Assembly: GCA_029938605.1 (NCBI GenBank)
Contig: JAOZUO010000004.1
Coordinates: forward strand, 23,048 to 87,047
DNA from: Deltaproteobacteria bacterium
GTDB taxonomy: Bacteria; Myxococcota_A; Polyangia; HGW-17; JAJRWW01
Direction: 5' to 3'
DNA length: 64,000 bases
In this document: piece after piece, positions 4,835 through 51,172 of the stretch
Position numbering within the stretch: position 1 is the stretch's first letter
Layout of the letters: each line of letters starts with the position of its first letter
Notes under the pieces: model-generated
What the model saw: the letters and a program-made list of their open reading frames with translations, nothing else
The model's database searches: none
What the model was told of the DNA's origin: nothing
Made by a program: the position numbers and the translations under genes

Positions 4835-6256
4835 CTACACCACTCCGAGCTTTTTGAGCTTGCGTAGAAGGGTGGTGCGGTGGATGCCCAGGTCCTGGGC
4901 GGCGCGGGTGCGGTTGCCGCCGGACCGCTCGAGGGCGGTGAGGATCGCGTCCCGTTCGATCATGCCCAGTCCGCCCCAGACCTGTGGGGAGGCGGCGCCT
5001 GGTATGGACCCGGAGGCGTCTTTACGTAGGGGGGTGGCGAACAGGTGCGGAGGCAGGTGCTCGGGTCCTATGCGCGCGGAGCGGCACAGGACCACGGCGT
5101 GCTCCATGGCGTTCTCCAGCTCGCGGATGTTGCCGGGCCAGGGGTAGCGTACGAGCGCCGCGAGGGCTTCGGGCGATACGCCGTCGATGGCTCTGTGCGA
5201 AGCTCCCGCCAGGCGACGGACGAAGTGGCGCACCAGCAGGGGGATGTCTTCGGTGCGGCCCCGCAAGGGCGGCAGGGGGATCTCGATGATGTGGATGCGG
5301 TAGAATAGATCCTCTCGGAACCGCTTCTCCGCTACGGCTTGACGCAGATCCACGTGGGTGGCGGCGATGATCCGCACGTCGGCGCTGACCGTCTCGGTGG
5401 CGCCGAGGGGCTCGTACCGGTGGTCCTGCAGGAAGCGGAGCAGCTTCGCTTGGATGGACAGGGGGAGATCGCCCACCTCGTCCAGAAACAGCGTGCCCTG
5501 GTCGGCCTGGGCGATGCGGCCGGGCTTGTCGCGCCGGGCGTCGGTGAAGGCGCCCTTGCGGTAGCCGAACAGCTCTGACTCGATGAGGGTCTCGGGCACG
5601 GCCGCGCAGTTGAAGGCCACGAAGGGGCCCTTGGAGCGTCCGCTCTGGTTGTGCAGGGCGCGGGCCACCAGCTCTTTGCCCGTGCCGCTCTCGCCCGTGA
5701 CCAGCACCGTGGTGCAGGAGTCGGCGATGAGGGGCAGGGTGGCGAAGATGCGCTCCATCTCCGGGTTGCGGCTGATGATGTCCTCGAACTGGTACTGCCC
5801 GTCGAGCTTGCGCTGCAGGGCCTCCATGCCGGAGATGTCCCGGAACATCTCCACGCCGCCGATGAGCGCGCCGTCGGGGGCCACCAGGGGCGACGTGGAT
5901 ACGAGGATGGGGACGGAGCGACCGTCCCGGGTCTGGATGCGTACCTGCTGGCGGCCGATGGACTCCCGCTCCCCCATGGACTGCTTCAACGGGCAGATGC
6001 CGTCGCACAGATCCGTGCGGAAGATCTCGGAGCACTGACGGCCTATGGCCTCCTCGGGGCAGTAGCCGGTGATGAGCTCGGCGCCGCGGTTGAAGGAGGT
6101 GATCCGCGTGGACTCGTCCACGGTGAAGATGCCCTGGTCAATGGCGTCCAGGATGAGGGGCACGTAGCGATGGTCGAACGGATCGGGCACAGCATCACCT
6201 TGTGTGAAAAAGTAGCATAGGTGAAATCGTAGCAATTTGCATCGATAGTGATGCAT
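4835..6256 (-). CDS. Sigma-54-dependent transcriptional activator (PAS sensor - AAA+ sigma-54 interaction - Fis-type HTH)
   Basis: PAS-like N-terminus (IFTVDESTRITSFNRGAELITGY), Walker A GESGTGKELVARALH, ESELFGY (GAFTGA-type) motif and C-terminal HTH (RTRAAQDLGIHRTTLLRKLKKLG). The exact start is uncertain; an in-frame GTG lies downstream of the listed ATG. Confidence 0.85.
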   Translation of the reverse strand: MHHYRCKLLRFHLCYFFTQGDAVPDPFDHRYVPLILDAIDQGIFTVDESTRITSFNRGAELITGYCPEEAIGRQCSEIFRTDLCDGICPLKQSMGERESIGRQQVRIQTRDGRSVPILVSTSPLVAPDGALIGGVEMFRDISGMEALQRKLDGQYQFEDIISRNPEMERIFATLPLIADSCTTVLVTGESGTGKELVARALHNQSGRSKGPFVAFNCAAVPETLIESELFGYRKGAFTDARRDKPGRIAQADQGTLFLDEVGDLPLSIQAKLLRFLQDHRYEPLGATETVSADVRIIAATHVDLRQAVAEKRFREDLFYRIHIIEIPLPPLRGRTEDIPLLVRHFVRRLAGASHRAIDGVSPEALAALVRYPWPGNIRELENAMEHAVVLCRSARIGPEHLPPHLFATPLRKDASGSIPGAASPQVWGGLGMIERDAILTALERSGGNRTRAAQDLGIHRTTLLRKLKKLGVV

Positions 6257-6375
6257 CAGTGTAGCAGAGTACGTCTATTTATGCAATAGCCAAGGGGGAG
6301 ATTGAAAGGGAGGCGGATTGTGTAACCAACTGAAACTATGTCGAAACTACTGAGAGGCGGCGGTGCAGCACCGGG

Positions 6376-6391
6376 CGGTCCGGAATTTGCA
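6376..6391 (+). promoter_or_regulatory. Possible weak sigma-54 (-24/-12) promoter for the downstream Hmc-type operon
   Basis: cGGtccggaatTTGCA satisfies GG-N10-GC with a perfect TTGCA -12 element but a poor -24 context. It lies ~95 nt upstream of the proposed GTG start at 6483 and next to a divergently encoded sigma-54 activator. Confidence 0.25.
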
Positions 6392-6482: not shown

Positions 6483-6932
6483 GTGAGTGAAGACCGGTCC
6501 AGTACTAACACAGGCTGCCAGGAAGACAAGCCGTTGCAGCATGGCGACGTGGCCTTCAGTACGGGCCAGGCCGCGCGGTATTGCTTCGTCACCGGGGACA
6601 CCATCGTCAACTGGATCAAGAGCGGCTCCCTAAGCGCTCAGAAGACCCCCGGGGGCCAGTACCGCATTCTGGTGACTGTGCTGTACGCCTTCATGCGCGA
6701 GCACGACATGAACACCGCGCTGCTCGAGGCCGAGCATAACGTGCGTCCGCTCTGCATGGAGTTCCATTGTCGTCGGCAGAAGACGCTTGGCTGCTCCGAA
6801 TGCCTGGTCAACCGATCCGGCGCCCAGCGTTGCTGGGAGCTGCGGACCGTGCTGCACGCTTCGGACGCGCGGCCCGGGCGATGCGAGGACTGTGACTACT
6901 TCCGGCGGTACTGCCGCGAGGATGGCCAATGA
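6483..6932 (+). CDS. Excisionase/MerR-type HTH DNA-binding protein with a C-terminal cysteine-rich (8 Cys) domain
   Basis: The ORF is annotated from 6363 but the N-terminal 40 codons are low-complexity and AT-rich; GTG at 6483 is proposed. The HTH segment FSTGQAARYCFVTGDTIVNWIKSGSLSAQKTPGGQYRI resembles excisionase-family DNA-binding domains. The C-terminal domain is CMEFHCRRQKTLGCSECLVN...RCEDCDYFRRYC. The stop overlaps the next gene's start (ATGA). Confidence 0.5.
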   Translation: MSEDRSSTNTGCQEDKPLQHGDVAFSTGQAARYCFVTGDTIVNWIKSGSLSAQKTPGGQYRILVTVLYAFMREHDMNTALLEAEHNVRPLCMEFHCRRQKTLGCSECLVNRSGAQRCWELRTVLHASDARPGRCEDCDYFRRYCREDGQ

Positions 6933-8215
6933 CCGAACGTGAGACCGAACGCGAGACCGGACGCGAGAAATGGAACTGGGACGTAGGCTCCCGCAACGTT
7001 GCCGATCTGGGCAAGCTCCGCGCCGCGTACACCGATGTGCACGAGCTCACGGTCAGCGCCGACGGAGAGCGGGTGGCCGCGCCTGTGGTGGCCGAGGACG
7101 GCTCCTTCAGGGTGGCGGTCAACGGTGAGGTGTGGGAGACCGAGCTGGAGAAGGCTTGGCACCTGAAGTTCACGCCTGATGACCGGCTCACCGCCCTGGT
7201 GCGCGTGGATGACATGTGGACCGTGGCCGTGGAGGGCGAGCTTTGGGAGCAGCGGTATCCCTTCGCCTGGAACACGAAGTTCTCCGCCGATGGGCGCACC
7301 ATCGCCGTGCAGATCAAAGCCGGCATGGAGTACTCCCTGTGCATCAATGACAAGCCCTGGGACCGGAACTTTCTGTCCATCCGGAACTACGCCTTGTCCG
7401 ATGACGGCCGACGGGCGGCCGCCCTGGTGCAGGTGGTGGAGCTCGTCACCGCCGACACCGAGACCTTCGCCGAGGGCACCTGGAGCGTGGCCGTGGACTC
7501 GGAGACCTGGGACGAGAAGTTCATCGGCGTGTGGGCGCCGGTGATCAGCCCCGATGGGGAGCACGTGGCCGTACAGACCCGCACCGAGCGGTTCGCCTAC
7601 ACCATCGCCCTCGATGGCGCCCCGTGGGAGTCCCGGTATGGTTGCGTGTGGGAGCCCGGGTTCAGGCCCCGGGGCGAGGGGCTTTTAGCGCCCGTGCGGA
7701 CCGGGGCCTCCTGGAGCCTGGCCGAGGACGGCGAGCCCCTTTGGAAGACCCCCTACGTGCAGTTGTGGTACGTGCGCTTCTCCCCGGCGGGGGAGCGGGT
7801 GGCCGCGGTGGTGGCCACTGACTTCGGCCGGTGGACCGTGGCGGTGGACGACCGCCCCTGGGGATGCACCTTCGGGGACGTGGTAATGGCGCCGGTGTTC
7901 TCCACCGACGGTAAGCGCGTGGCGGCCGCCGTCAGGCACGAGGGGCGTTGGACCGTGGCGGTGGACGGTGAGCCCTGGTCCCATTGGTTCGACACGGTGT
8001 GGGATCCGGTGGTGGGGGCCGGGCGCGGTCCGGTCCTGGCCAAGGTGAAGAACCAGGGCGCCTATGGTTTGGCCGTGGACGGTCGTGTGGGCGCCCAGCG
8101 GTATGAGCACCTCTGGGATCCGACCTTCAGTCCGGACGGCGACAAGGTCCTGATCCGCGGCGTGCAGAGCGGAAAGTACATCCGGCGGGTCGTCCTGACC
8201 GAGGAGCTGGGATGA
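6929..8215 (+). CDS. Cytoplasmic beta-propeller repeat protein (about nine ~45-aa PD40/TolB-like repeats), translationally coupled to the following NarI-like gene
   Basis: No signal peptide. The repeat unit is FSPDG.RVAA.V...GRWTVAVDGEPW...F..VWDPV, seen nine times (for example FSPAGERVAAVVATDFGRWTVAVDDRPWGCTF and FSTDGKRVAAAVRHEGRWTVAVDGEPWSHWF). The N-terminus carries a 12-bp x3 codon repeat (TERETERETGRE). There are 4-nt ATGA overlaps at both ends. Confidence 0.7.
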   Translation: MTERETERETGREKWNWDVGSRNVADLGKLRAAYTDVHELTVSADGERVAAPVVAEDGSFRVAVNGEVWETELEKAWHLKFTPDDRLTALVRVDDMWTVAVEGELWEQRYPFAWNTKFSADGRTIAVQIKAGMEYSLCINDKPWDRNFLSIRNYALSDDGRRAAALVQVVELVTADTETFAEGTWSVAVDSETWDEKFIGVWAPVISPDGEHVAVQTRTERFAYTIALDGAPWESRYGCVWEPGFRPRGEGLLAPVRTGASWSLAEDGEPLWKTPYVQLWYVRFSPAGERVAAVVATDFGRWTVAVDDRPWGCTFGDVVMAPVFSTDGKRVAAAVRHEGRWTVAVDGEPWSHWFDTVWDPVVGAGRGPVLAKVKNQGAYGLAVDGRVGAQRYEHLWDPTFSPDGDKVLIRGVQSGKYIRRVVLTEELG

Positions 8216-8868
8216 GCACTATGGTCAACTTTGTCTCAGGTCCCCTGGTCTGGATCGCCCTGGTCACGTTCGTGGTGGGGACCGTGGTGCGCATTGTCTT
8301 GATGATCCGCACCATCAAACTGGACAAGACCGTCCTGCCCGCCATGACGGTCAAACACAGCCTCCGGTCTATCTTCTTTTGGACGCTGCCCTACGGGAGC
8401 CGGTCCATGCGGACGCGCCCGTTCTTCTCGGGCCTGTCCTACCTCTTCCACCTGTGTCTGCTGGCGCTGCCGCTTACGGTCATGGGGCACGCGGTGCTCT
8501 GGCAACAGGCCTGGGGGATCCGCTGGTGGAGCCTGCCTTCCGGGGTGGCGGACGTGATGACGGCGGTGGTGATCTTCGCCGGGGGGATCTTTTTGTTGCG
8601 GCGGATCATGTCTCCGGAGGTGCGCAACGTAAACACCTGGCGGGACTACGTGATCCTGGTCATCGTTCTTTTGCCCTTCGTCACCGGGTTCATCGCCTAC
8701 CACCAGTGGCTGGACTACCGGACGATCATCATCCTGCACATGGTCAGCGGCGCGGTGTGGCTCATGGCCATTCCGTTTACGTGGCTGCAGCACATGTTCA
8801 TGTTCTTCTTCTCCCGAGCGTACATGGGCAGCGAGTTCGGCGCCGTACGCAACGCGCGGGATTGGTAA
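8212..8868 (+). CDS. hmcE: NarI-type dihaem cytochrome b membrane subunit (HmcE / DsrM / HmeC family)
   Basis: 218 aa with 5-6 TM helices and conserved His in helices (LFHLCLL, MGHAVL, ILHMVSG, LQHMF), as in nitrate-reductase-gamma-like quinol-oxidising subunits. The size matches HmcE. Confidence 0.8.
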   Translation: MSTMVNFVSGPLVWIALVTFVVGTVVRIVLMIRTIKLDKTVLPAMTVKHSLRSIFFWTLPYGSRSMRTRPFFSGLSYLFHLCLLALPLTVMGHAVLWQQAWGIRWWSLPSGVADVMTAVVIFAGGIFLLRRIMSPEVRNVNTWRDYVILVIVLLPFVTGFIAYHQWLDYRTIIILHMVSGAVWLMAIPFTWLQHMFMFFFSRAYMGSEFGAVRNARDW

Positions 8869-8880
8869 AGGGTAGGTCGT

Positions 8881-10209
8881 ATGGCGGATCTCGAAGATAT
8901 GGCGGTGGCTGACCCGGGATTCGATCTCGCGCTGGCGAAGCTCACCCCCGAGCGCATCGAGCAGGTGATCAACTCGGTCCTCTCCCAGGCGGTGGCCGAG
9001 AGGATGAAGCTGTTTCTCAAAACCTGCGTGCACTGCGGCCTCTGCGCCGACGCGTGTCACACCTACCTGTCGCGGAACCGGGACCCGGATTTCGCGCCGG
9101 TGGCCAAGGTTCGGGATACGCTGGGGGTGATGCTGAAAAAGAAGGGCCGCGTCAGTCCCGAGTTCATGAAGAACGCGGCGCGCGTGGCCTTCATCGAGTG
9201 CGGCGGCTGCCGGCGCTGCTCCATGTACTGCCCCTTCGGCATCGACATCGCCACGATGATCATGACCATCCGGCGCATCTGCAGCCTCCTGGGCATGGTG
9301 CCCCAGTTCATTCAGGACACCACCAACAGCCACTCCGCCACGTCGAATCAGATGTGGGTCCAGCCCGACGACTGGATCGACACGGTCATGTGGCAGGAGG
9401 AGGACGCCCAGCTCGAGGTAGCCGGCCTCCGCATCCCCCTGGACAAGGAGGGCGCCGAGGTCATGTACTCGGTGATCGCGCCCGAGCCCAAGGTCATGGC
9501 GCAGCTCATCGCCAACATCGCCGTGCTCATGACCGTAGCCAAGGTGGACTGGACCATGCCGTCGGCCGACGGGTGGGACAACAGCAACATGGCCATGTTC
9601 TCGGGGGACCTCGAGATCATGGGGCGCATCGAGCGGGAGCACTGGGAGCGCGCCCTGGAGCTTCGGGTGGGCAAGATGGTCATGGGCGAGTGCGGCCACG
9701 CCTACCGCGGCGCGGTGTACGACGGCCCCAAGTGGCTGGGGTGGCAGGGGCCGCCCTTGCCCATGGTGCACGCGGTGGAGCTCTACTACGACCTTCTGCG
9801 CGAGGGGCGCATCGAGATCACCGACAAGCTCACCGAGCCGGTGACCATCCAGGATCCTTGCAACATCGTGCGCGGGCGCGGCCTGCACGAGAAGCTGCGG
9901 TACGTGGTCCATGCTCTGTGCGACAACGTCGTCGAGATGGACCCCAAGTTCGAGCACAACTACTGCTGTGCCGCCGGCGGCGGGATCATCAACTGCGGCG
10001 CGCCCTGGAAGATGGCGCGGCTCAAGTCCATCAAGATCAAGGCCACGCAGCTCAAAAAAACGGGTGCGAGCCTGTGCATCACGCCTTGTCACAACTGCCA
10101 CCACGGCGTTGTGGACATCATCGGTCACTACCACATCGACATGCGCACCTCGTTCCTCATCGAGTTGATCGTCAAGCAGATGAAGATACCCGAGGGGCTA
10201 GGAGTATGA
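8881..10209 (+). CDS. hmcF: HdrD-like iron-sulfur oxidoreductase with two [4Fe-4S] motifs and two CCG domains (HmcF / DsrK / HmeD family)
   Basis: CVHCGLCADAC and CGGCRRCSMYCPFG ferredoxin motifs. CCG-domain signatures are DPCNIVRGRG, NYCCAAGGG and CITPCHNCHHG. The stop overlaps the next start (ATGA). Confidence 0.85.
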   Translation: MADLEDMAVADPGFDLALAKLTPERIEQVINSVLSQAVAERMKLFLKTCVHCGLCADACHTYLSRNRDPDFAPVAKVRDTLGVMLKKKGRVSPEFMKNAARVAFIECGGCRRCSMYCPFGIDIATMIMTIRRICSLLGMVPQFIQDTTNSHSATSNQMWVQPDDWIDTVMWQEEDAQLEVAGLRIPLDKEGAEVMYSVIAPEPKVMAQLIANIAVLMTVAKVDWTMPSADGWDNSNMAMFSGDLEIMGRIEREHWERALELRVGKMVMGECGHAYRGAVYDGPKWLGWQGPPLPMVHAVELYYDLLREGRIEITDKLTEPVTIQDPCNIVRGRGLHEKLRYVVHALCDNVVEMDPKFEHNYCCAAGGGIINCGAPWKMARLKSIKIKATQLKKTGASLCITPCHNCHHGVVDIIGHYHIDMRTSFLIELIVKQMKIPEGLGV

Positions 10210-11834
10210 CGACCATGTCTGGACGAATCGCAGCGTGGGTCCCGGCCGCACTGGTCTTGGCCCTCGTCCTGGATGCGGGAGCGTCAGCGGGGTGTCAGCG
10301 TCCGGCGGCCCAACCCACCCGGGAGGTGGGTCCCGGCGTCCTGGTGATCCGCATGGCGCCGGCGCTGGGCAAGATGCGTCGGCCCCCCGTGACGTTTGAT
10401 CATGACCAACACTCGGCCGCGGTCAAAGGCGACTGTAAGACCTGCCACCTCGTGGATCGCGCCCAGACGCTGTCTGCGAAGTTCCTGCGGGGTAACGACG
10501 GTAAGAGCGCCGGCAAGCTTCAGGACTTTTATCACGATCGCTGCCTGGGCTGTCACAAGCGGCGCGGCCGGGGCGCCATGGTCTGTGGTGAGTGCCACGC
10601 CAAGGGACCCCGGATCCGATCGACCTGGAAGGAGCTCCGCATGGACTACTCCCTCCACGCGCGTCACGTCCTGGCCCAGCAGAAGCGGTGCGCCGACTGT
10701 CACCACGTCTTCGACAAAGCGAAGCAGAAGCTGGTGTACAAAAAAGGAGCCGAGGAGAGCTGCAAGTCCTGCCACACCGCCCGCACCGTGGGGCGGCGGC
10801 CGTCCCTGCGGTTGGCGGCGCACCAGGCTTGCATCTCGTGCCACCTGCGGACCCGGGGTGCCGGTCTGGCCACAGGTCCCCTGGACTGCGCGGGTTGCCA
10901 TGGCCCCCGGGCCCAGTCGAAGATCAAGCGGTTGGAGCACCCCGAGCGGCTCATGCGCGGCCAAAAGGACCGGCTGTGGGTGAAGGCCAAAGGGGGCAGT
11001 TCCCAGCGGGTCCCCTTCAACCACCTGGCCCACGAGAAGGCCGGGTCGAGCTGCAGCACCTGTCACCACCAGACCCTGGGATCCTGCAACGGGTGTCACA
11101 CCATGGGGGGCGCGAAAAAGGGCGGCGGAGTGACCCTGGCCCAGGCCCACCACGACCCCGGATCTGTGCATAGCTGCGTGGGCTGTCACGCCCAGGCGAC
11201 CAAGCAGGCGAGCTGCGCTGGATGTCACCATACGATCAAGGCCGAGGCCAGTCGGCGAAGCTGCGGTGTTTGTCACAGTGGGCCCAAGGCGGGGACTCCG
11301 CTGGCGGCGGGGATTCCGCTGGCGGCGGGGACTTCGGTGGCGGCGGGGACTCCGCTGGCGGCGGGGACTCCGCTGGCGGTGGGGACTACGCTGGCCCCTC
11401 CCGTCGTGTCGCGTCGCGTGACCACGGCCCTACCGGCCTACTCCAAGGATTTCCCCGAGCGGGTCACCATCAAGATCCTCGCCCGGGACTATGCGCCGGT
11501 GGTGATGGAGCACGGGCGCATGGTGCGCAAGCTGCACAGCCTGGCGACGAAGAGCTCGCTGGCGGTACGGTTCCACGGTGGGGTCGAGTCCCTGTGCGCG
11601 GGGTGTCACCACCGGGCCAAGCCCGGGACCCGGCCCGCGCCCTGTAGCGCATGCCACACCCGCCAGGGCCACGCCACCCGGGACCGACCGGCGCTTGGGG
11701 CGGCCTACCATCGGCAGTGCGTGGGTTGTCATCAGAAGATGGGGCTCACCAGGTGGCAGGGCTGCGAAAGCTGTCACAAGAAGGGGTCGTCGAAAAAAAC
11801 CGCTGGCTCCCGGCCGCGAGGAGGAGTGCGATGA
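10206..11834 (+). CDS. hmcA: Sixteen-heme periplasmic cytochrome c (HmcA-like high-molecular-weight cytochrome)
   Basis: Begins at the ATG at 10206 inside the long 9054..11834 frame. Signal peptide MTTMSGRIAAWVPAALVLALVLDAGASAG. There are sixteen CxxCH motifs (CKTCH, CLGCH, CGECH, CADCH, CKSCH, CISCH, CAGCH, CSTCH, CNGCH, CVGCH, CAGCH, CGVCH, CAGCH, CSACH, CVGCH, CESCH) in ~540 aa, which is the HmcA architecture. Confidence 0.85.
   Translation: MTTMSGRIAAWVPAALVLALVLDAGASAGCQRPAAQPTREVGPGVLVIRMAPALGKMRRPPVTFDHDQHSAAVKGDCKTCHLVDRAQTLSAKFLRGNDGKSAGKLQDFYHDRCLGCHKRRGRGAMVCGECHAKGPRIRSTWKELRMDYSLHARHVLAQQKRCADCHHVFDKAKQKLVYKKGAEESCKSCHTARTVGRRPSLRLAAHQACISCHLRTRGAGLATGPLDCAGCHGPRAQSKIKRLEHPERLMRGQKDRLWVKAKGGSSQRVPFNHLAHEKAGSSCSTCHHQTLGSCNGCHTMGGAKKGGGVTLAQAHHDPGSVHSCVGCHAQATKQASCAGCHHTIKAEASRRSCGVCHSGPKAGTPLAAGIPLAAGTSVAAGTPLAAGTPLAVGTTLAPPVVSRRVTTALPAYSKDFPERVTIKILARDYAPVVMEHGRMVRKLHSLATKSSLAVRFHGGVESLCAGCHHRAKPGTRPAPCSACHTRQGHATRDRPALGAAYHRQCVGCHQKMGLTRWQGCESCHKKGSSKKTAGSRPRGGVR
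11287..11396 (+). repeat. Six 18-bp in-frame tandem repeats inside hmcA encoding a (G-T-P-L-A-A)-type linker
   Basis: gcggggactccgctggcg repeated about six times with point variants. It encodes AGTPLAAGIPLAAGTSVAAGTPLAAGTPLAVGTTLAPP between heme clusters 12 and 13. Confidence 0.8.
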
Positions 11835-12919
11835 GCATTTCACGGAGAGGATTCATCGGCGGCGCTGGCGCGGGCGCGGTGGCGTCGGTGGCGGTGGGTA
11901 GCAAGGCGGCCCGGGCGGGGGGCGGCGCGGATCGGTTCATGGGCCACCCGGGGTCCATGGGACTTTTGCATGACACCACCCTGTGCGTGGGGTGCCGGTC
12001 CTGCGAGCTCGCCTGCACCAAGGTCAACTCAAAGCCCAAGCCCGCGGGGCCTCTGCACGACAAGTCCATCTTTTCCAAGCTGCGGCGGGTCACAGACAAG
12101 CTGTACACGGTGGTGAACCGGTACGTGAAGGCGGCAGGCAAAAAGCCGGCGGTGTACCGCAAGCATCAGTGCATGCACTGTCAGGAGCCCTGCTGCGCCT
12201 CGGTGTGTTTCGTCAAGGCCTTCACCAAGACCCCCGAGGGGCCGGTGCTGTACGACCCGAGCGTGTGCGTGGGCTGTCGCTACTGCGTGAACGTGTGTCC
12301 CTACTACGCCCTGGGATATGAGTACGACAACGCCTTCAATCCCACGGTACAGCGGTGCACCATGTGCTACACGCGCATCAAAAAGGGGGAGGAGCCCGGG
12401 TGCGCCCAGGCGTGTCCCATGGGGGCCATCGTCTACGGCAAGCGCGAAGATCTACTCAAGCTGGCCCGGCAGCGCATCGCCAAGTTCCCGGACCGGTATG
12501 TGGACCAGGTGTTTGGCGAGCACGAGTACGGCGGCACGAGCTGGTTGACCATCGCCGGGGTGACCTTCGACAAGCTCGGCCTGCCGGTGAATGCCAGCCA
12601 CAAGCCCCTGCCCGAGCTGACGGCGGGGTTTTTGTCCATCGTACCTTTGGTGATCACCATCTACCCGGGGCTGCTGTTAGGCTTTCATGCCTGGACCAAG
12701 CGCAAGGAGCGGTTGGCCGAACAGGAGCGACTGGCGGCGGCCGCCGAGGCCAAGGCCGCCGCCGAGGCGGCGGGCGCCACCAAGGCCGCCCAGCAGAAGA
12801 AGCTCGCAGATTCCCGCCACGCCAAGGCGGTGGACCTGGCCGTGAAGAAGGCGCTGGCCCAGGCGGCTAAGGAGCGTGAGGCGGAGTCTGACGCGGCGAA
12901 GAAGGAGGACACCCCATGA
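11831..12919 (+). CDS. hmcB: Tat-exported 4x[4Fe-4S] ferredoxin-type subunit with C-terminal TM anchor (HmcB / DsrO / PsrB family)
   Basis: Twin-arginine leader MSISRRGFIGGAGAGAVASVAVG. Four Cys clusters (CVGCRSCELAC; CMHCQEPCCASVC; CVGCRYCVNVCP; CTMC...CAQACP). A C-terminal helix (FLSIVPLVITIYPGLLLGF) is followed by an Ala/Lys-rich tail. ATGA overlaps at both ends. Confidence 0.8.
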   Translation: MSISRRGFIGGAGAGAVASVAVGSKAARAGGGADRFMGHPGSMGLLHDTTLCVGCRSCELACTKVNSKPKPAGPLHDKSIFSKLRRVTDKLYTVVNRYVKAAGKKPAVYRKHQCMHCQEPCCASVCFVKAFTKTPEGPVLYDPSVCVGCRYCVNVCPYYALGYEYDNAFNPTVQRCTMCYTRIKKGEEPGCAQACPMGAIVYGKREDLLKLARQRIAKFPDRYVDQVFGEHEYGGTSWLTIAGVTFDKLGLPVNASHKPLPELTAGFLSIVPLVITIYPGLLLGFHAWTKRKERLAEQERLAAAAEAKAAAEAAGATKAAQQKKLADSRHAKAVDLAVKKALAQAAKEREAESDAAKKEDTP

Positions 12920-14151
12920 GTGACTCCACTGCCAACGACGTCGGTGTTGCCACGGACGTCGGTGTCGCCACGGACGTCGGACCTGCCACGGAGGCGGCGC
13001 CCACAAAGCGGCCGCTGCTGACTCCCTTCAACATCATCGCCACGTTGATCCTGCTGGCGGGCGTGGCGGCGGGGCTCTACCGCCTCGCCGTGGGGCTCGG
13101 GCCCTCCACCAACCTGGACCACGTGAACCCCTGGGGCCTGTGGATCGGCTTCGACGTCATGACCGGTGTGGCCCTGGCCGCCGGCGGATTCACCATCTCG
13201 TCGGCGGTGTACCTCTTCGGCCTCAAGGAGTACCAGCCCCTGGTGCGGCCGGCCATCCTCACGGGCTTTCTGGGGTACTTCCTGGTGGTGGTGGGACTGC
13301 TGGTCGATCTGGGGCAGCCCTGGCGGCTGCCGTACACCTTCGCGGTACAGGCCGGACCCACCTCGGCGCTGTTCGAGATCGCCCTGTGCGTGGCGCTGTA
13401 TCTCACCACCCTGTTCGTGGAGTTCACGCCGGCGGCCTTCGAGTGGCTCGGCTGGAAGCGGTGGCGGGCCCTGGTCCACTCCATGACCATCGCCCTGACC
13501 ATCTTCGGGCTGATCCTGTCGACCATGCACCAGTCCACCCTGGGGGCCATGTACCTGATCGCCCCGTCTCGGTTGCACCCGCTGTGGTATTCGACGCACA
13601 TCCCGGTGCACTTCTTCGTGTCGGCGGTCATCGCGGGTCTGTCCATGGTGATCTTCGAGTCGGCCCTGTCCCACCGGGTCTTCGCCGACAAGGTGGAGAT
13701 CACGCACGAGAAGCTCGACGAGATGACCATTGGACTGGCCAAGGCGGCCTGCGTCGCCCTGGGGGTGTACCTGGCCATCAAGGTGGTCTCTGTCTCCCTG
13801 GACAACGAGTGGGCGCTGCTGTTTACGCCCTACGGCCACTGGTACCTCTTTGAGATCCTAGGCTTCGTGGTGCTGCCCTTGATTGGGTACACCATCGGCT
13901 TCCGAGAGAGGCGGCCCACGATCATTCGGGTCTCGGCGGTGATCACGGTTTTGGGCATCGTGCTCAATCGGTTGAACGTGTCGATCTTCGCCTACAACTG
14001 GCAGTTGCCGGCCCACGAGCGGTACTGGCCCCACCCGTACGAGATCATCGTCACGGTGGCGCTGGTGACCTTCGGCGTTGTGATGTTCAAGTGGATCGCC
14101 AACCGGATGCCCATTTTGCACGAACACCCCGACTGGCGGGGCGATCACTAG
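12916..14151 (+). CDS. hmcC: NrfD/PsrC-type integral membrane quinone-interacting subunit (HmcC / DsrP family)
   Basis: 411 aa with ~10 TM helices typical of the NrfD family. The N-terminus has an 18-bp x3 repeat (NDVGVATDVGVATDVGPAT). Confidence 0.8.
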   Translation: MSDSTANDVGVATDVGVATDVGPATEAAPTKRPLLTPFNIIATLILLAGVAAGLYRLAVGLGPSTNLDHVNPWGLWIGFDVMTGVALAAGGFTISSAVYLFGLKEYQPLVRPAILTGFLGYFLVVVGLLVDLGQPWRLPYTFAVQAGPTSALFEIALCVALYLTTLFVEFTPAAFEWLGWKRWRALVHSMTIALTIFGLILSTMHQSTLGAMYLIAPSRLHPLWYSTHIPVHFFVSAVIAGLSMVIFESALSHRVFADKVEITHEKLDEMTIGLAKAACVALGVYLAIKVVSVSLDNEWALLFTPYGHWYLFEILGFVVLPLIGYTIGFRERRPTIIRVSAVITVLGIVLNRLNVSIFAYNWQLPAHERYWPHPYEIIVTVALVTFGVVMFKWIANRMPILHEHPDWRGDH

Positions 14152-14173
14152 ACCAGGAGAACCCGAGTCAATC

Positions 14174-14296
14174 ATGCATACGTTGCAGGACTTCTTCCAT
14201 TTCACAAAGGGCCTGACCTACATTGTAGCTGGGCTCTTCCTGTTGGCCTCCATTGGCTTCTGGCTGTTTTTGACCAGCCGAGAGGATGAAGAGTAA
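14174..14296 (+). CDS. 40-aa single-TM membrane peptide, possible HmcD analogue
   Basis: Not in the ORF track (below the 60-aa cut-off). AGGAGA lies 13 nt upstream of ATG. Translation is MHTLQDFFHFTKGLTYIVAGLFLLASIGFWLFLTSREDEE. It sits directly after the NrfD-like gene, as HmcD does in Hmc operons. Confidence 0.35.
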   Translation: MHTLQDFFHFTKGLTYIVAGLFLLASIGFWLFLTSREDEE

Positions 14297-14345
14297 GGGC
14301 TTCGGTGACGACCGGGCTTCGGTGACGACCGGGCTTCGGTGAAGG
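14297..14345 (+). repeat. Intergenic 17-bp tandem repeat (about 2.9 copies) directly upstream of the receiver gene RBS
   Basis: gggcttcggtgacgacc gggcttcggtgacgacc gggcttcggtgaagg, followed by GAAGGAGA and the ATG at 14357. Confidence 0.8.
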
Positions 14346-14356
14346 AGACAGACCCC

Positions 14357-14887
14357 ATGGAGAATGAGAAACCCAAGCTGGTGCTGGTCGTCGACGACGA
14401 GCCCGACGTGCGCATGTTCATCGAGGCGGCCCTCGAGGACGCGGGCTTTGAGGTGGTCACGGCGGGCAACGGTCACGAGGCCTACAACCGCGTCAAGGAG
14501 CGGGCGCCGGATTTCATTACGCTGGATCTGGTCATGCCCAAGCAGTCGGGCGCGCTGTTTTATCTGAAGCTGTGCAACAACAAGACCTGGTGTGACATCC
14601 CGGTGATGATCATCTCGGCCCACGCTCACGACGAGTTGGGCGAAGACGACTTTCGGCAGCTCATGAAGGGGCAGGGCGCGCCCCGCCCGACGCACTTCAT
14701 GGAGAAGCCGGTGCGTCCAGACGAGCTCGTGCGAGTCGTGTGCGAAACCCTCGGGTTGGATCCGAGTGGTGCTGTCGCCGACGACGCCACCACCGACGCC
14801 CGGGATGAGGTGTTTTCCAAGCTTAAGGGCGCCGACTTGAAGACCCTAAAGAGGATCCGGTCGGTGCTCGACAAGGAGGAGGGCTGA
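14357..14887 (+). CDS. Stand-alone CheY-like receiver (REC) protein
   Basis: KLVLVVDDEPDVRMFIEAALEDAGFEVVTAGNGHEAYNRVKERAPDFITLDLVMPKQSG...IPVMIISAH. The acidic pocket and phospho-acceptor Asp are present, and there is no output domain. A strong RBS (GAAGGAGA) lies 8 nt upstream. It is a paralogue of the REC genes at 45311 and 48457. Confidence 0.8.
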   Translation: MENEKPKLVLVVDDEPDVRMFIEAALEDAGFEVVTAGNGHEAYNRVKERAPDFITLDLVMPKQSGALFYLKLCNNKTWCDIPVMIISAHAHDELGEDDFRQLMKGQGAPRPTHFMEKPVRPDELVRVVCETLGLDPSGAVADDATTDARDEVFSKLKGADLKTLKRIRSVLDKEEG

Positions 14888-14915
14888 GCCTGGCGGCCAG
14901 AGCCCAGACGACCCT

Positions 14916-16448
14916 ATGGCACCTGACGAGCTTAGAACCTGGATCAGCGAGCAGCTGTTCGATGTCGCCCCCATCGCCATCGCCACCATCGATCGTGACT
15001 TCAACGTCGTGCAGGCCAACGCGGCCTTTGAGGCGAAGTTCGGCGAGTGGCAGGGGCGCAAGTGCTACCAGGTCTACAAGGACCGGGACGCGCTGTGCCC
15101 GCGGTGCATGGCGTCACGGTCCTTCGAGGATGGGCAGAGCCGCGTCACCCCCGAGGTGGGCGTGGACGAGCACGGATCGATCACCCACTACATCAAGCAC
15201 ACCGTGCCCATCGTGCGGGAGTCCGGGGAGATCCCGTATCTGGTGGAGATGTCCATCGACATCACCGAGTCGCTGCGACTCGAAGATGAGCTGCACATCG
15301 CCCACGACTTTCTGAAGACGCTCATCGCCACCTCTGCCGACGCCATCGTGGGCGTCAACGCGGACCAGGAGGTGCGGGTGGTGAACCCTGCGGCGCGAAA
15401 GCTGTTCAAGATCGCCGACACCGAGACCCTCACCGGGGATCAGCTGGTGGAGATCCTGCCCCGGGGCCTGTTCGACGACGTCTTCTCCTGCGACCGCAGC
15501 CTGCTTCTGCCCGAGACCACCGTGCGCGCCACCGACGGGGAGGAGATCCCCGTGCGGCTGGCCGGGGCGTGCATGGAGTCGGGCGGCAAGCTGCTCGGGG
15601 GCGCCATCTCCATCACCGACCACCGGGAGCTGCGAGATCTGCAGGCCGAGAAGCTGGAGGCCGAGCGGTTGGCGGCGGTGGGGCAGACCGTGGCGGGCCT
15701 GGCCCACGGGGTCAAGAACCTGCTGACGGGCCTGGAGGGGGGCATGTACCTCATGTCCACCGGCCTCAAAAAGGGCAACCAGAAGCGGGTAGATAACGGC
15801 TGGGACATGCTCAACCGGAACATCGTCCGCATCTCCCGGTTCGTGCGCGACTTCTTGAGCTTCTCCAAGGGCCGGACCATCACCGTGGAGCCGGCAGACC
15901 CCGTGGCCGTGGCCCGGGAGGTGGTGGGCCTCTACGTGGCCCGGGCCGAAGAGGCCGGCGTGAAGCTCACCTGGAGCGCCAAAGGAGACATCGCCCCGGC
16001 CAACCTCGACTTCGAAGGCTTGCATGACTGCCTCACCAACCTGGTGGGCAACGCCATGGATGCCTGCCAGATGAGCGAGCACGAATCCGATCCCGAGTCC
16101 GAGCTCGAGCCCGATCCCGAGTCCGAGGGTGGTCAGGCAGAGGCGGGCTCCACCGTGCACGTCTGCGTGTCCGACGAAGACGGCGTGCTGCGCTACTCGG
16201 TGACCGACAACGGCGTGGGCATGGACTACGAGCTTAAGCAGAAGGTCTTCACCACGTTCTTCACCACCAAGGGTCTCGGCGGCACCGGCCTGGGCCTGCT
16301 CACCACCCGCAAGATCATCCAGGAGCACGGCGGCCGCATCGAGCTGGAGTCCACCCCCGGCAAAGGCTCCACCTTCACCATCCTCCTCCCCCGCGACCGC
16401 CTCCCCGCCCGCACCACCAAGAGCGACGACCCCGACCAGGGCGCGTAA
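14916..16448 (+). CDS. Sensor histidine kinase with two PAS domains (first PAS carries a C-x11-CPRC cysteine motif)
   Basis: PAS (IAIATIDRDFNVVQANAAFEAKFGEWQGRKCYQVYKDRDALCPRCMASRSF), a second PAS, a HisKA H-box (LAAVGQTVAGLAHGVKNLL) and HATPase_c (TDNGVGMD...KGLGGTGLGLLTTRKIIQEHGGRIELESTPGKGSTFTI). An acidic insert has a DPESELEPDPESE DNA repeat. Confidence 0.85.
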   Translation: MAPDELRTWISEQLFDVAPIAIATIDRDFNVVQANAAFEAKFGEWQGRKCYQVYKDRDALCPRCMASRSFEDGQSRVTPEVGVDEHGSITHYIKHTVPIVRESGEIPYLVEMSIDITESLRLEDELHIAHDFLKTLIATSADAIVGVNADQEVRVVNPAARKLFKIADTETLTGDQLVEILPRGLFDDVFSCDRSLLLPETTVRATDGEEIPVRLAGACMESGGKLLGGAISITDHRELRDLQAEKLEAERLAAVGQTVAGLAHGVKNLLTGLEGGMYLMSTGLKKGNQKRVDNGWDMLNRNIVRISRFVRDFLSFSKGRTITVEPADPVAVAREVVGLYVARAEEAGVKLTWSAKGDIAPANLDFEGLHDCLTNLVGNAMDACQMSEHESDPESELEPDPESEGGQAEAGSTVHVCVSDEDGVLRYSVTDNGVGMDYELKQKVFTTFFTTKGLGGTGLGLLTTRKIIQEHGGRIELESTPGKGSTFTILLPRDRLPARTTKSDDPDQGA

Positions 16449-29036: not shown

Positions 29037-30697
29037 GTAACCGTTCACGGGGTGTGACACCGCTTTGGTCTTCTGGGGGACCCCGTGGACCAGTTGGCGA
29101 CCATGCTTGAGGTGATGCCTCCGTTCGGGCGCGAGGCGAAGAAAAAGTTGACTTCCCGATCGAGGAGATCCTAATAGGTGGATCTCACGCCGACTCAAAA
29201 AGCTTGAAAGCACGCTGCAGCAGGTTCAAGAGGCACTCCTGGCTCTAAGCAGGGAGAACGCTGCGCTTCGTGAGGAGAACGCTGCGCTTCGTGAGGAGAA
29301 CGCTGCGCTTCGTGAGGAGAACGCCGCGCTCCGTACTCGCGTGGCGGAGTTGGAGGAGAAGCTGCGAACCGACTCGTCGAACTCCTCGAAGCCGCCATCG
29401 AGTGACCCACCATGGGCAGACACAAAGAAGCGCAAGCGGGGGAAGCGCAAACGTCGGCCCGGCGGCCAGCCTGGACACAAAGGAAAAACCCGTGCCCTGC
29501 TACCTCCCGCCCAGGTAGACGACTTCGTGACGTGCCATCCGCCAACGCTGTGTGGCTGCGGAGGGCATGTGGTCCGTACTGACGAGGACCCGCAGCGGTT
29601 GCAGAATTTGGAACTGGCGCAGATCAAGGCATACGTCACGGAGTACCTGCTGTTGAGCGGGCTCTGTGATCAGTGCGGAAGACTGCATCTTGGGAAGCTG
29701 CCCCCTGAATCTCCAACCGGCGTGCTGGGCCCGCGGGCGATGGCGGCAGTGGCGGTCCTCTCGGGCAAGTATCACTTGAGCAAACGACAGGTCGAGGAGG
29801 TCCTACAGGACCTACTGGGAATACAGGTGTCGTTGGGCACGGTGTCCAATACTGAGGCCCGGGTCAGCGCCGCCCTGGAAGCCCCTTTTGAGGAAGCCAG
29901 AGCTTACGTCCGCGAGCAACCCGTGGTCCACGCCGACGAGACGGGTCACAAGATGGCCGGGAAGAAGGCGTGGATGTGGACCGCGGTGACGGTTGCTGTA
30001 AGCGTATTCCTGATCCGTTTCACCCGTGCGACGAAAGCAGCCAAGGAGCTGCTGGGAGCCACCTTCGCTGGGATCTTGGTTTCCGACCGGTGGGGGGCGT
30101 ACAACTGGGTGGACACCACTCGGCGCCAGATTTGTTGGGCCCATCTCATTCGGGATTTGGTGAAAATCGAAGCGCGAGGCTGGCGCTCGGAAGAAATTGC
30201 TAGCGAGATTTTGGAGTATGTCAAAGAGATGTTTGTCCTGTGGAACACGTTCCAACAAGGCAAGCGTCAGCGCCCGTGGTTGCAGCGAAAGATGAAGGTG
30301 ATCCGCGAGAAAATTGAGGGTCTCCTTGAGCAGGGTGAAGTTTGCTACCACATCAAGACGCAGGCCACGTGCAAGCGGCTCCTTAAGTTGAAGAACGCGC
30401 TGTGGACCTACGTGGATGTCCCGGGTGTCGAGCCGACAAACAACCTTGCGGAACGCACGATCAGACCCTACGTACTCTGGCGCCGGGTGAGCTTCGGAAC
30501 GCAATCTGAGCGCGGCAATCGGTTCGTGGAGAGAATGATGACGGTGTCGGCAACCTGCAGGCAGCAGGATCGCAACGTGCTTGAGTATGTGACAGCGGCT
30601 GTGCAAGCTCACACGCAAGGGAAAGCCATCCCTTCTCTTCTCCCTCAGGCCAAAGCTGAAATTTCTGAAGCAGCAGCCTGACCCCGTGAACGGTTAC
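29037..30697. mobile_element. IS66-family insertion sequence, single-ORF type, ~1.66 kb, with 17-bp perfect terminal inverted repeats beginning GTAA
   Basis: Left IR GTAACCGTTCACGGGGT (29037..29053) and right IR ACCCCGTGAACGGTTAC (30681..30697) are perfect reverse complements. The right IR abuts the transposase stop codon. No 8-bp target-site duplication is evident (flanks gtcgattg / cgttaacg). Confidence 0.8.
29341..30681 (+). CDS. IS66-family transposase (TnpC-like)
   Basis: Hallmarks are SSNSSKPPSSD, QPGHKGKTR, the zinc-ribbon-like CGCGGHV...CDQCG, the DDE region HADETGHKMAGKKAWMWTAVT, CWAHLIRD and the C-terminal LWTYVD...PTNNLAERTIRP. In-frame coiled-coil sequence (LKKLESTLQQVQEALLALSRENAALREENAALREENAALREENAALRTRVAELEEKL) extends upstream to 29152 with no canonical start codon, so the true start is unresolved (GTG at 29341 as listed). 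Confidence 0.8.
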   Translation: MAELEEKLRTDSSNSSKPPSSDPPWADTKKRKRGKRKRRPGGQPGHKGKTRALLPPAQVDDFVTCHPPTLCGCGGHVVRTDEDPQRLQNLELAQIKAYVTEYLLLSGLCDQCGRLHLGKLPPESPTGVLGPRAMAAVAVLSGKYHLSKRQVEEVLQDLLGIQVSLGTVSNTEARVSAALEAPFEEARAYVREQPVVHADETGHKMAGKKAWMWTAVTVAVSVFLIRFTRATKAAKELLGATFAGILVSDRWGAYNWVDTTRRQICWAHLIRDLVKIEARGWRSEEIASEILEYVKEMFVLWNTFQQGKRQRPWLQRKMKVIREKIEGLLEQGEVCYHIKTQATCKRLLKLKNALWTYVDVPGVEPTNNLAERTIRPYVLWRRVSFGTQSERGNRFVERMMTVSATCRQQDRNVLEYVTAAVQAHTQGKAIPSLLPQAKAEISEAAA

Positions 30698-30978
30698 CGT
30701 TAACGTACGGTGTGCTAACGCACAACCTGTCGCACACGAGGTCACTGGGCCAGGTGTCCGGGTGAAACCTAGGCACGGTTGGGCAAACGAGCTAAATACG
30801 GATGACATCTCATTTTTTGAAGGCTATGACATCCGTGTCCGAAGCGTTCTCGTTAGGGCGAGGTTGTCCTACACGGGAATACGCCTACCTTCAACGAGGG
30901 CTGAGACCGAGCACTGGTTCTACCTTAAGACAGATATCGCAATCTGGCGGCCAGGGTCGAGCAACCTGGAGTGAATCG

Positions 30979-32595: not shown

Positions 32596-32821
32596 CACGG
32601 GCGTTGTGATCTGGGCGTCGCCTGCCAATCCGACATCCGACCGAACTCCGCCAATGGTCTGTGTTTTTAGCTGGTTGTAAATTGGTCTCCGCATTGCATT
32701 GGCCTGGTATGGCCGGGCGTGGATCGAGCAGTGGCCCGATGCCCTAGCCGATGCCAATGCCAGAGCACTTGCGTTCCACAAATCTTTGACGTTCTCCTCC
32801 GTGGAGAGGGAGGAACTCGAC

Positions 32822-42466: not shown

Positions 42467-42556
42467 GGGTTGGGAGTATATCTTATTGGACCTCGGTCGT
42501 TGGTCATTGTCCCGCTGGTTATTAGGATTTATACTCGGGCTGGTGATTACAGGAAA

Positions 42557-45310: not shown

Positions 45311-45829
45311 TTACTCGGTCTTGAGCCTGAGGTTGATGGCGTGCAGGATCTCTGTATCCCGGTTGCGGGCGCGGCTTGTGATGGATCTTTGGTGGGTGGC
45401 CAGACCGATGTCCTCGTCGTTGATGTCTACTTGGAGGAGCTCGGCGATGAGGCGCACTAGCTCGGGGGGGGTGATGGGTTTTTCCAACACCCGTGCGGGG
45501 CGATGGTCCCGGGGGAAGGCGAGCAGTTGCCGCAGGGCCTCCTCGCCGAGCTCGTCCCGCAGGTGGGCGGTGATCAGGATGACCGGAATCCTCTCCCAGG
45601 GGCGGTTTTCGCGGAGCTTACGCAAAAAGGCCAGGCCGTTCATGCGCGGCATAACCATGTCGAGGGTGATCAAGTCCGGCGTGAGCGTGGCGAGCTGATC
45701 CAGGGCGTACTGACCGTCCTCGGCGGTGTGGACCACGAATCCGGCGTCTTCGGCGCAGGCCTCGAGGAACATGCGCACGTCCGGCTCGTCCTCCACTACC
45801 AGGATCGTTTTGTCATTCGCGTGTACCAT
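45311..45829 (-). CDS. Stand-alone CheY-like receiver (REC) protein, paralogue of the REC at 14357
   Basis: TILVVEDEPDVRMFLEACAEDAGFVVHTAEDGQYALDQLATLTPDLITLDMVMPRMNGLAFLRKL...IPVILITAH...DELGEEALRQL...EKPITPPELVRLI. It shares the distinctive DEPDVRMF(I/L)EA...GF.V.TA..G...PD(F/L)ITLD.VMP...IPV..I(S/T)AH..DELGE..(F/L)RQL...EKP..P.ELVR signature with the 14357 gene. 8-nt gap to the upstream HdrD-like gene. Confidence 0.8.
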   Translation of the reverse strand: MVHANDKTILVVEDEPDVRMFLEACAEDAGFVVHTAEDGQYALDQLATLTPDLITLDMVMPRMNGLAFLRKLRENRPWERIPVILITAHLRDELGEEALRQLLAFPRDHRPARVLEKPITPPELVRLIAELLQVDINDEDIGLATHQRSITSRARNRDTEILHAINLRLKTE

Positions 45830-45837
45830 GGGAGATT

Positions 45838-47448: not shown

Positions 47449-47453
47449 GGTCT

Positions 47454-48401: not shown

Positions 48402-48456
48402 GGTGAATCTCCTCTCTTCGTCAGCGCTGGGGGCAATTGCGGTTCCTATAGGGCCC

Positions 48457-49423: not shown

Positions 49424-51172
<1,749 letters not shown>

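Follow-up and report, generated by a model that had tools for sequence, protein, structure and literature searches.

Which transmembrane redox complex is encoded by a compact run of cytochrome, iron-sulfur and membrane-protein genes in a Myxococcota-like bacterium: the Hmc complex of Desulfovibrio with its genes in another order, or a different assembly? The genes lie at 6483-14296 of a stretch of 64,000 nucleotides from contig JAOZUO010000004.1 (hereafter the window; positions are counted from its first letter). A sequence-only reading of the window had described this range as six genes encoding the full Hmc subunit set. The features on which that description was built were all found on the plus strand, namely a protein with 16 CxxCH motifs, an iron-sulfur protein with a twin-arginine (Tat) signal, an NrfD protein, a CCG protein, a cytochrome b and a 40-aa peptide. 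The count of six was too low: the range holds eight open reading frames (ORFs), and a helix-turn-helix (HTH) protein and TmcD had been left undescribed. Taking 6483-14296 together with the regulators at 4835-6256 and 14339-16448, we hold it likely, at roughly three chances in four, that this is one probably sigma-54-controlled operon for a seven-subunit transmembrane redox complex, a hybrid of Tmc and Hmc.

Ten ORFs with high third-position GC run in the same direction on the plus strand from 6483 to 16448, and the order of the first eight is HTH-tmcD-tmcC-tmcB-hmcA-hmcB-hmcC-hmcD (Table 1). Five of the junctions in 6483-14151 are 4-nt overlaps (HTH/tmcD, tmcD/tmcC, tmcB/hmcA, hmcA/hmcB and hmcB/hmcC), and tmcC and tmcB are separated by a gap of 12 nt. 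The last four ORFs (hmcC, hmcD, receiver and kinase) are spaced by 22, 42 and 28 nt.

Pfam returned generic domains only (Cytochrom_CIII, Fer4_11, NrfD, CCG and, marginally, Nitrate_red_gam, which gave 22.7 bits for the cytochrome b at a cutoff of 22.9), and subunit families were called by NCBIfam equivalog models with curated cutoffs. The cytochrome b encoded at 8212-8868 scored 197 bits with the HmcE model NF045716, below its cutoff of 275, and higher with the TmcC model. The CCG protein encoded at 8881-10209 failed both the HmcF model NF045711 (382 bits, cutoff 750) and the DsrK model (184 bits, cutoff 400). HmcB and HmcC had their own Hmc models at the top, with HybA (210 bits) and a HybB-type model (256 bits) as respective runners-up; Pfam NrfD gave 63.4 bits for HmcC. 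A Desulfobacteraceae metagenome-assembled genome (MAG) with the canonical A-B-C-D-E-F order (locus L032) served as control and gave 356 bits with HmcE and 938 bits with HmcF, the TmcC and TmcB scores being lower. Loci of the D-C-B-A type from Nitrospirota, Acidobacteriota, Zixibacteria and Desulfomonilaceae gave 512-530 bits with TmcD and 318 bits with TmcC, and four hybrid-type TmcB homologues gave 660-728 bits with the TmcB model. Because the control and the D-C-B-A loci score oppositely, the models do separate HmcE/F from TmcC/B. The HmcA loci retrieved did not include a canonical tmcABCD locus, and the Tmc/Hmc assignment was made from curated hidden Markov model (HMM) scores with a positive control. 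By these scores three subunits (D, C and B) are on the Tmc side and four (A, B, C and D) on the Hmc side, and we class the operon as a hybrid, Tmc(DCB)+Hmc(ABCD), instead of a permuted Hmc.

Table 1. Genes and sequence elements at the operon, in its flanks and at a second redox module of the window
Feature	Positions	Strand	Support or remark
Sigma-54 enhancer-binding protein: PAS + AAA+ + Fis-type HTH	4835-6256	-	Pfam Sigma54_activat 229.9 bits, PAS, HTH_8
Inverted repeat TGTAGCA-N15-TGCAATA	6260-6288	unstranded	candidate activator binding site
Sigma-54-type -24/-12 promoter-like element CGGTCC-N5-TTGCA	6376-6391	+	read from alignment of relatives
HTH + Cys-rich protein, 149 aa	6483-6932	+	TIGR01764 30.2 bits (cutoff 28.8); HTH_17
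TmcD, 428 aa, Trp-rich	6929-8215	+	NF045725 TmcD_fam 505.6 bits (cutoff 440)
TmcC, 218 aa, NarI/DsrM-type cytochrome b	8212-8868	+	NF045723 268.6 bits (cutoff 240)
TmcB-type CCG protein, 442 aa	8881-10209	+	NF045724 669.3 bits (cutoff 735)
HmcA, 542 aa, 16-heme cytochrome c	10206-11834	+	NF045713 453.3 bits (cutoff 400)
HmcB, 362 aa, four-cluster ferredoxin	11831-12919	+	NF045715 400.3 bits (cutoff 420), top model
HmcC, 411 aa, NrfD/HybB-type	12916-14151	+	NF045714 540.6 bits (cutoff 550), top model
HmcD, 40 aa, one helix	14174-14296	+	NF045712 58.2 bits (cutoff 34)
Stand-alone receiver, 182 aa, C-terminal extension ~50 aa	14339-14887	+	Response_reg 70.4 bits
PAS-PAS histidine kinase, 510 aa	14916-16448	+	HATPase_c 80.6 bits, PAS_4 55.7 bits
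Receiver of second redox module	48457-48837	-
NarI-like cytochrome b of second redox module, 315 aa	47454-48401	-
DsrK-like CCG protein of second redox module, 536 aa	45838-47448	-	DsrK 291.5 bits (cutoff 400)
Receiver of second redox module	45311-45829	-

These scores bear directly on the possibility that the operon is a complete canonical HmcA-F set with its genes permuted to E-F-A-B-C-D, acquired unusually by a myxobacterium. HmcA and HmcD pass the Hmc models, HmcB and HmcC score best as Hmc, and HmcE/F and TmcC/B are homologous, so that the functional architecture would be the same; the order also mirrors DsrMKJOP. However, the cytochrome b and the CCG protein are far under the HmcE and HmcF cutoffs and above or near those of TmcC and TmcB, opposite to the canonical E and F proteins, and a translationally coupled gene for TmcD, which canonical Hmc lacks, lies upstream. 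The claim of a full Hmc set stood for A and D, which pass, and failed for E (197 of the required 275 bits) and F (382 of 750); B and C have Hmc models at the top, with scores slightly under the cutoffs. The 40-aa peptide was rightly recognized as HmcD, with a score well over the family cutoff, and its equivalents in L081 and L082 belong to PF28260 (DVU_0533).

The distribution of the gene order was examined with the HmcA alignment scanned against one genome per GTDB species; 305 relatives were confirmed by tblastn, the best 79 loci were kept (L with a number), and locus content was counted by tblastn with the window proteins. TmcD-TmcC-TmcB-HmcA-HmcB-HmcC(-HmcD) was the commonest architecture, present in 54 of the 79 loci. 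The canonical A-B-C-D-E-F order was found in 11, mostly with Desulfobacterales or Desulfobacteraceae labels, and the E and F proteins of these loci were at about 40% and 38% identity to their window counterparts; HmcABC without an adjacent CCG gene made up the other 14. The hybrid loci carry the labels Myxococcota, 'Deltaproteobacteria', Acidobacteriota (Sulfomarinibacteraceae, Thermoanaerobaculia and Holophagae), Zixibacteria, Ignavibacteriales, Eiseniibacteriota, Nitrospirota/Thermodesulfovibrionia and Desulfomonilaceae. The order had been read as a permutation of Hmc; its occurrence in 54 of 79 loci from many phyla shows that it is not a local rearrangement and argues against a permuted Hmc, for which we see only a slim chance. 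Judged from these gene orders, the hybrid operon is a conserved and widespread variant, not one peculiar to a single myxobacterium.

The closest relatives are L081, L082, L083 and L002. In the first three, HmcA is 76% (L081) or 68% (L082 and L083) identical to that of the window, and most of the neighbourhood is shared: cytochrome c maturation (ccm) genes, a sigma-54 activator, the HTH gene and all seven subunit genes, then the receiver and a further ORF, which encodes a PAS histidine kinase in L082 and is without Pfam annotation in L081 and L083. The 9.6-kb contig of L002, labelled Myxococcota bacterium, contains the seven subunit genes together with those for the HTH protein, receiver and kinase; its HmcA and TmcB are 51% and 84% identical to those of the window. 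The TmcB-type protein is common and well conserved in metagenomes: 2904 such proteins were found at E <= 1e-20, and the best 120 of these were all at least 65% identical. Variants were also seen. In seven of the 54 hybrid loci (L044, L053, L059, L070, L071, L077 and L079) hmcD lies between hmcA and hmcB, and in this Desulfomonilaceae-type variant receiver and kinase genes usually stand on both sides. A Thermodesulfovibrionia MAG (L072, 433-15489) has two tandem tmcD-tmcC-tmcB-hmcA-hmcB-hmcC clusters.

The cytochrome provides the firmest link to a protein of known structure. HmcA has exactly 16 CxxCH motifs among its 33 Cys and 37 His residues, and no CxxxCH or CxxCK variants were present in it. 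Residues 27-526 align over the full length with the solved 16-heme cytochrome of D. vulgaris (PDB 1GWS, E = 4.9e-96), and because of this match the features of the operon cannot be due to chance. The C-terminal half matches nine-heme cytochromes (1OFW, E = 1.8e-37), and 16 CxxCH motifs were counted in 73 of 76 complete HmcA copies. The TmcA model covered only residues 153-232, with 97.4 bits at a cutoff of 114, and the 64-kb window contained no second multiheme ORF, including a tetraheme TmcA or a triheme cytochrome. HmcA has a signal peptide with a conserved Cys30 directly past the hydrophobic core (SAGC in the window and VGGC in L002; region 10206-10300). A lipobox-like motif occurs in 18 of the 54 hybrid-type, three of the six MetFV-type and none of the 11 canonical HmcA sequences. 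In some lineages HmcA may thus be lipid-anchored, and the window protein may be a lipoprotein. Within hmcA, an 18-bp tandem repeat at 11288-11395 (six copies, 91% match) encodes an AAGTPL-type linker between heme motifs 12 and 13, which probably contributes to the excess in length over shorter relatives of 513-523 aa.

With the family scores, the 1GWS match upheld the view that the genes specify a membrane-spanning redox complex of the kind represented by Hmc, Tmc and DsrMKJOP. Because Fer4_11 and NrfD modules also occur in Psr, Nrf, Ttr and Dms enzymes, one might suspect an assembly unrelated to Hmc, either a terminal reductase of the generic NrfD/PsrBC type or an extracellular conduit resembling OmcA/MtrC. 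The operon, however, has no molybdopterin or other catalytic subunit, and its cytochrome is of the class III c3 type and aligns with the solved HmcA. The decaheme DmsE model gave it 18 bits, against 453.3 with HmcA. A generic NrfD/PsrBC or OmcA/MtrC identity is refuted by the HMM scores and the 1GWS alignment, and we give it virtually no weight. The CCG protein had likewise been placed with HdrD, DsrK and HmcF instead of GlpC and LldF, and correctly so: the GlcF and LdhH models reached only 28-32 bits, TmcB 669. The outcome that the sequence-only reading had named as refuting it, an OmcA/MtrC-type cytochrome with a GlpC/LldF-type CCG protein, was thus not observed.

Cofactor motifs and predicted topology were also read for the remaining subunits. 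HmcB carries an RRGF motif for Tat export, four groups of Cys, a C-terminal hydrophobic helix (residues 267-285) and a tail rich in Ala, Lys and Glu. These features agree with published work in which HmcB is a ferredoxin that is integrated by the Tat system and held by a tail anchor (PMC10924467). HmcC has about ten hydrophobic segments, and the 10-helix group of QrcD, HybB and HmcC has been argued to consist of electrogenic quinone reductases (PMC6303296). Near the start of hmcC, three copies of an 18-bp repeat (12937-12992) give rise to N-terminal DVGVAT repeats. TmcC has five hydrophobic helices. Its H80, H93, H176 and H194 are conserved without exception in an alignment of 58 TmcC/HmcE sequences, the number of His needed to ligate two bis-His b-hemes. 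The TmcB-type protein, without signal peptide or transmembrane segment, contains two CxxCxxCxxxC motifs, a CCG domain and GECGH at residue 269, a motif that is common to DsrK, HmcF and TmcB and is probably catalytic (PMC10861901); no close relative of this protein was found in the PDB (best E = 7.7e-5). TmcD has 23 Trp (5.4%), weak PD40 propeller repeats and no transmembrane segments, and is predicted to be a cytoplasmic beta-propeller-like subunit.

From these genes we infer that all seven proteins form one complex. Mechanism, direction of electron flow and cytoplasmic partner are modelled here on characterised homologues; for Hmc and Tmc themselves, which are well-known redox complexes of sulfate reducers, cytoplasmic partners and direction are still debated (PMC4215793). 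HmcA would be periplasmic, possibly lipid-tethered, and would trade electrons with soluble periplasmic carriers. From HmcA, electrons would pass to the tail-anchored HmcB and on to HmcC, which would contact menaquinone and would probably be electrogenic, as has been shown for QrcD. By a parallel route, or in series through the quinone pool, they would cross the membrane over the two b-hemes of TmcC to TmcB, where the receiving site would be the cytoplasmic non-cubane [4Fe-4S]/CCG centre with TmcD bound to it. TmcB would then reduce, or in the reverse direction oxidise, a cytoplasmic thiol/disulfide carrier, and the DsrC trisulfide is a candidate partner if the organism respires sulfite.

The two halves are also known from separate systems: TmcABCD has no Hmc B, C or D subunits, and NhcABCD has no E and F. 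One operon could accordingly encode two physically separate modules that share HmcA, a Nhc-like quinone reductase (HmcA-HmcB-HmcC-HmcD) and a Tmc-like wire in which HmcA acts as TmcA with TmcC, TmcB and TmcD. HmcABC loci without CCG or TmcD genes do exist (L042, L045, L046, L051 and the MetFV-type loci), and part of HmcA matches the TmcA model with 97 bits. Set against this are the tight coupling of the genes, the seven-gene order that is fixed across phyla and the fact that the homologous DsrMKJOP and HmcABCDEF have been described as single complexes (PMC10861901, PMC10924467). Two separate modules are on balance unlikely.

Among the HmcABC loci without a CCG gene, one group is linked to folate metabolism. 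In six loci (L017, L018, L020, L024, L029 and L058; for example L020, 7089-13766) MetF, a cytochrome b that resembles HmcE/TmcC and has a Lys-rich insertion, MetV, HmcA, HmcB and HmcC are encoded together, with no CCG or TmcD gene. The arrangement suggests that a methylene-tetrahydrofolate reductase is connected to the membrane and to the pool of periplasmic cytochromes. The accession prefix of L024, JAFGIB01, is the name of a sulfate-reducing, Wood-Ljungdahl-encoding Myxococcota family from Zodletone (bioRxiv 10.1101/2021.07.06.451402), and a full-text search returned no paper joining MetF/MetV with Hmc. In the window itself a 597-aa ORF with MTHFR and 'MTHFR C-terminal' (MetV-like) domains lies at 30802-32595, directly past an IS66 transposase gene (29341-30681); its identity to MetF and MetV of the Hmc-linked loci is only 30-37%.

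The sigma-54 activator gene at 4835-6256 is divergent from the operon, which its product is likely to regulate, and has the same position in L081, L082 and L083. The inverted repeat at 6260-6288 has one palindrome mismatch, with 0.23 chance matches expected in the window, and extra GTAGCA half-sites lie at 6212 and 6230. In the spacer alignment with L081, L082 and L002 the TGTAGCA half is unchanged. The -24/-12-like element retains GG-N10-GC with TTGC[A/T] in the window and the same three loci, in a spacer that has otherwise diverged. A sigma-54 consensus scan allowing up to two mismatches had no match upstream of the operon, and the candidate emerged only from the alignment of the relatives; sigma-70 and terminator scans remained at background level. 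From the activator and these elements we infer that the operon is under sigma-54 control.

The product of the first gene, with an excisionase/MerR-like HTH and eight Cys in its C-terminal region, is a putative redox- or metal-sensing regulator. Its gene is kept in L002 (72%), L047, L081 and L082; none was found at the Acidobacteriota loci. At the other end, a stand-alone receiver follows the complex, as the sequence-only reading had noted in likening it to rrf1 behind hmc, and after it comes the PAS histidine kinase. The top NCBIfam model for the receiver is DVU0259_DivK (84.3 bits, under the cutoff of 160), and DVU0259 adjoins tmc in D. vulgaris. A receiver gene lies 3' of HmcD in most of the Acidobacteriota and close Myxococcota loci. 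The kinase position is occupied also in L002 and L082, and the ORFs without annotation in L081 and L083 are probably its equivalents. Response regulators and kinases have been reported beside the adjacent tmc and hmc clusters of Desulfococcus multivorans, as described earlier for D. vulgaris (PMC5109826). The spacer between hmcD and the receiver (14297-14342) is filled by a perfect 17-bp repeat (2.7 copies), which may shift the true start of the receiver gene.

Several observations weigh against a single sigma-54-controlled hybrid complex. The joining of the Tmc-type and Hmc-type halves in one particle is a proposal drawn from the genes. TmcB (669 against 735 bits), HmcB (400 against 420) and HmcC (540.6 against 550) are all slightly under their equivalog cutoffs, and by these scores the three window proteins represent subclades of their own and are not strict orthologues. 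The share of 54 in 79 over-represents the hybrid architecture, since the kept loci are those closest to the window HmcA. The promoter-like element at 6376-6391 has three mismatches to TGGCAC-N5-TTGCW. Finally, dsrAB, dsrC, aprAB, sat, qmo, hydrogenase, formate dehydrogenase and small cytochrome c3 genes were all missing from the 64-kb window as candidates for electron donor or acceptor, and the C-terminal motif of DsrC had no match in the window or in the related loci searched.

This last point touches on a possible sulfur-respiring role, in which the complex would replace DsrMKJOP: in an organism reducing sulfite or sulfate it would act as terminal reductase of the DsrC trisulfide, and the 16-heme protein would take the place of DsrJ. 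The module order, cytochrome b, CCG protein, cytochrome c, iron-sulfur protein and NrfD protein, does mirror DsrMKJOP as had been pointed out, the catalytic GECGH motif is present, and many carriers of the hybrid are reported to bear Dsr, such as Sulfomarinibacter (PMC8528874) and Thermodesulfovibrio (PMC5165239). However, the DsrO model gave only 85.5 bits in this operon (cutoff 200) and the DsrK score was less than half of its cutoff, Thermodesulfovibrio has DsrMKJOP as well as the hybrid cluster, and in the window a separate DsrK-like/NarI-like pair is present at 45838-48401 with no dsr genes near the operon. A replacement of DsrMKJOP is very improbable.

The DsrK-like/NarI-like pair is part of a second membrane redox module on the minus strand (45311-48837), in which it is flanked by two receiver genes. 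Upstream of it are a one-mismatch sigma-54 consensus (49151-49166) and, at 49424-53276, genes for another sigma-54 activator with a PAS domain and for a histidine kinase of the hybrid type. Near the hmc cluster of L082 a 172-aa receiver is encoded beside a 536-aa CCG protein, and DsrK/TmcB-like genes with receivers nearby were also seen in L017, L020, L074, L078 and L080.

If the hybrid complex is accepted, its place in the history of the family can be considered. TmcDCB-HmcABCD could be the ancestral, phylum-spanning form, with a role outside sulfur metabolism in this organism and a carrier other than DsrC. The Hmc of the Desulfovibrio type may then have arisen when TmcD was lost and the genes were rearranged, and Tmc when HmcBCD were lost and HmcA shrank to the tetraheme TmcA. 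Here the complex may link menaquinone and a pool of periplasmic cytochromes to a thiol/disulfide carrier in the cytoplasm. We regard this extension as doubtful. Tmc has been proposed to be simplified or derived from Hmc (Price et al.; Dörries et al.). The hybrid operon, conserved from Nitrospirota to Acidobacteriota and Myxococcota, is a concrete candidate for an intermediate and a possible evolutionary link between the two, and the Desulfovibrio Hmc and Tmc models may be atypical.

The window has a GC content of 59-68%, and its assignment to Myxococcota is plausible from the MAG labels of the relatives (L002 being the closest labelled one) and from the DUF4215 'Myxococcus cysteine-rich repeat' proteins encoded at 32699-35551 and 42470-44188. 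These belong to a set of large secreted repeat proteins (32699-35551, 42470-44188, 55033-56484 and 60072-61868) with DUF4215 and FG-GAP, MopE-like metal-binding, and EGF and PD40 domains, on which the sequence-only reading had based its own Myxococcota call. Genes of system I cytochrome c maturation adjoin the operon at 3-2300 (CcmE, CcmH and a heme lyase of the CcmF/NrfE type that is truncated at the edge of the window). They are likewise near the cluster in L081 and L082, and L081 has in addition a gene for a 106-aa cytochrome c3-like protein without counterpart in the window. Glycosyltransferase genes are also present in the window. Hmc had been regarded as not a described feature of Myxococcota, and this did not hold: Hmc-type clusters were found in many MAGs so labelled (L002, L010, L011, L021, L025, L047, L048 and others), and dissimilatory sulfate reduction in Myxococcota MAGs has already been published (bioRxiv 10.1101/2021.07.06.451402; PMC10591310). 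The operon indicates anaerobic respiration through periplasmic cytochromes in an uncultivated Myxococcota-like lineage, which fits the sulfate-reducing Myxococcota MAGs.

Compared with known systems, the operon shares with HmcABCDEF of D. vulgaris Hildenborough the 16-heme HmcA, the Tat-dependent tail-anchored HmcB, the NrfD/HybB-type HmcC, a small HmcD, regulators downstream and the pairing of a cytochrome b with a CCG protein. It differs in that the latter pair is of Tmc type instead of HmcE/F, TmcD is extra, HmcA has a conserved N-terminal Cys, the order is D-C-B-A-B-C-D instead of A-B-C-D-E-F, and an HTH gene and a sigma-54 activator are found where Hmc has rrf1/rrf2. With TmcABCD of D. 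vulgaris and D. alaskensis it has in common TmcC and TmcD that pass the cutoffs, TmcB as top model and a DVU0259-like receiver; in the window, however, the 16-heme HmcA replaces the tetraheme TmcA, the tmc genes are reversed (D-C-B), and there is an additional module for interaction with quinone, HmcB-HmcC-HmcD, which is absent from Tmc. DsrMKJOP is similar in the order of its modules and in the GECGH motif of its CCG subunit, whereas the window operon has the 16-heme protein for the triheme DsrJ, contains TmcD and HmcD in addition and is unlinked to dsrAB/dsrC. The nine-heme cytochromes of NhcABCD match the C-terminal half of HmcA and the iron-sulfur/NrfD/small-subunit module is common to both; NhcABCD differs in having nine hemes and in lacking counterparts of the cytochrome b, the CCG protein and TmcD.

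Full-text searches returned no paper identifying the TmcDCB+HmcABCD hybrid, although it may have been described earlier, most likely in the comparative genomics review by Pereira et al. 2011. An Hmc-type cytochrome of the acidobacteriotal Sulfomarinibacter was noted by Flieder et al. (PMC8528874). The nearest described case is a cluster of Thermodesulfovibrio sp. N1 (THER_1440-1444), in which a CCG protein, HmcA, an iron-sulfur protein and an NrfD protein were named 'Hmc complex' in 2016, with no mention of TmcD, cytochrome b genes or Tmc affinity (PMC5165239). The described order CCG-HmcA-FeS-NrfD is that of the window, and tmcD-tmcC-tmcB-hmcA-hmcB-hmcC was found in the Thermodesulfovibrionia MAG loci L072, L075 and L076. 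Thermodesulfovibrio sp. N1 differs in being a proven sulfate reducer of another phylum, with 30-56% identity to the window proteins. The hybrid is thus apparently present in a cultured genus, from which it could be purified and tested.

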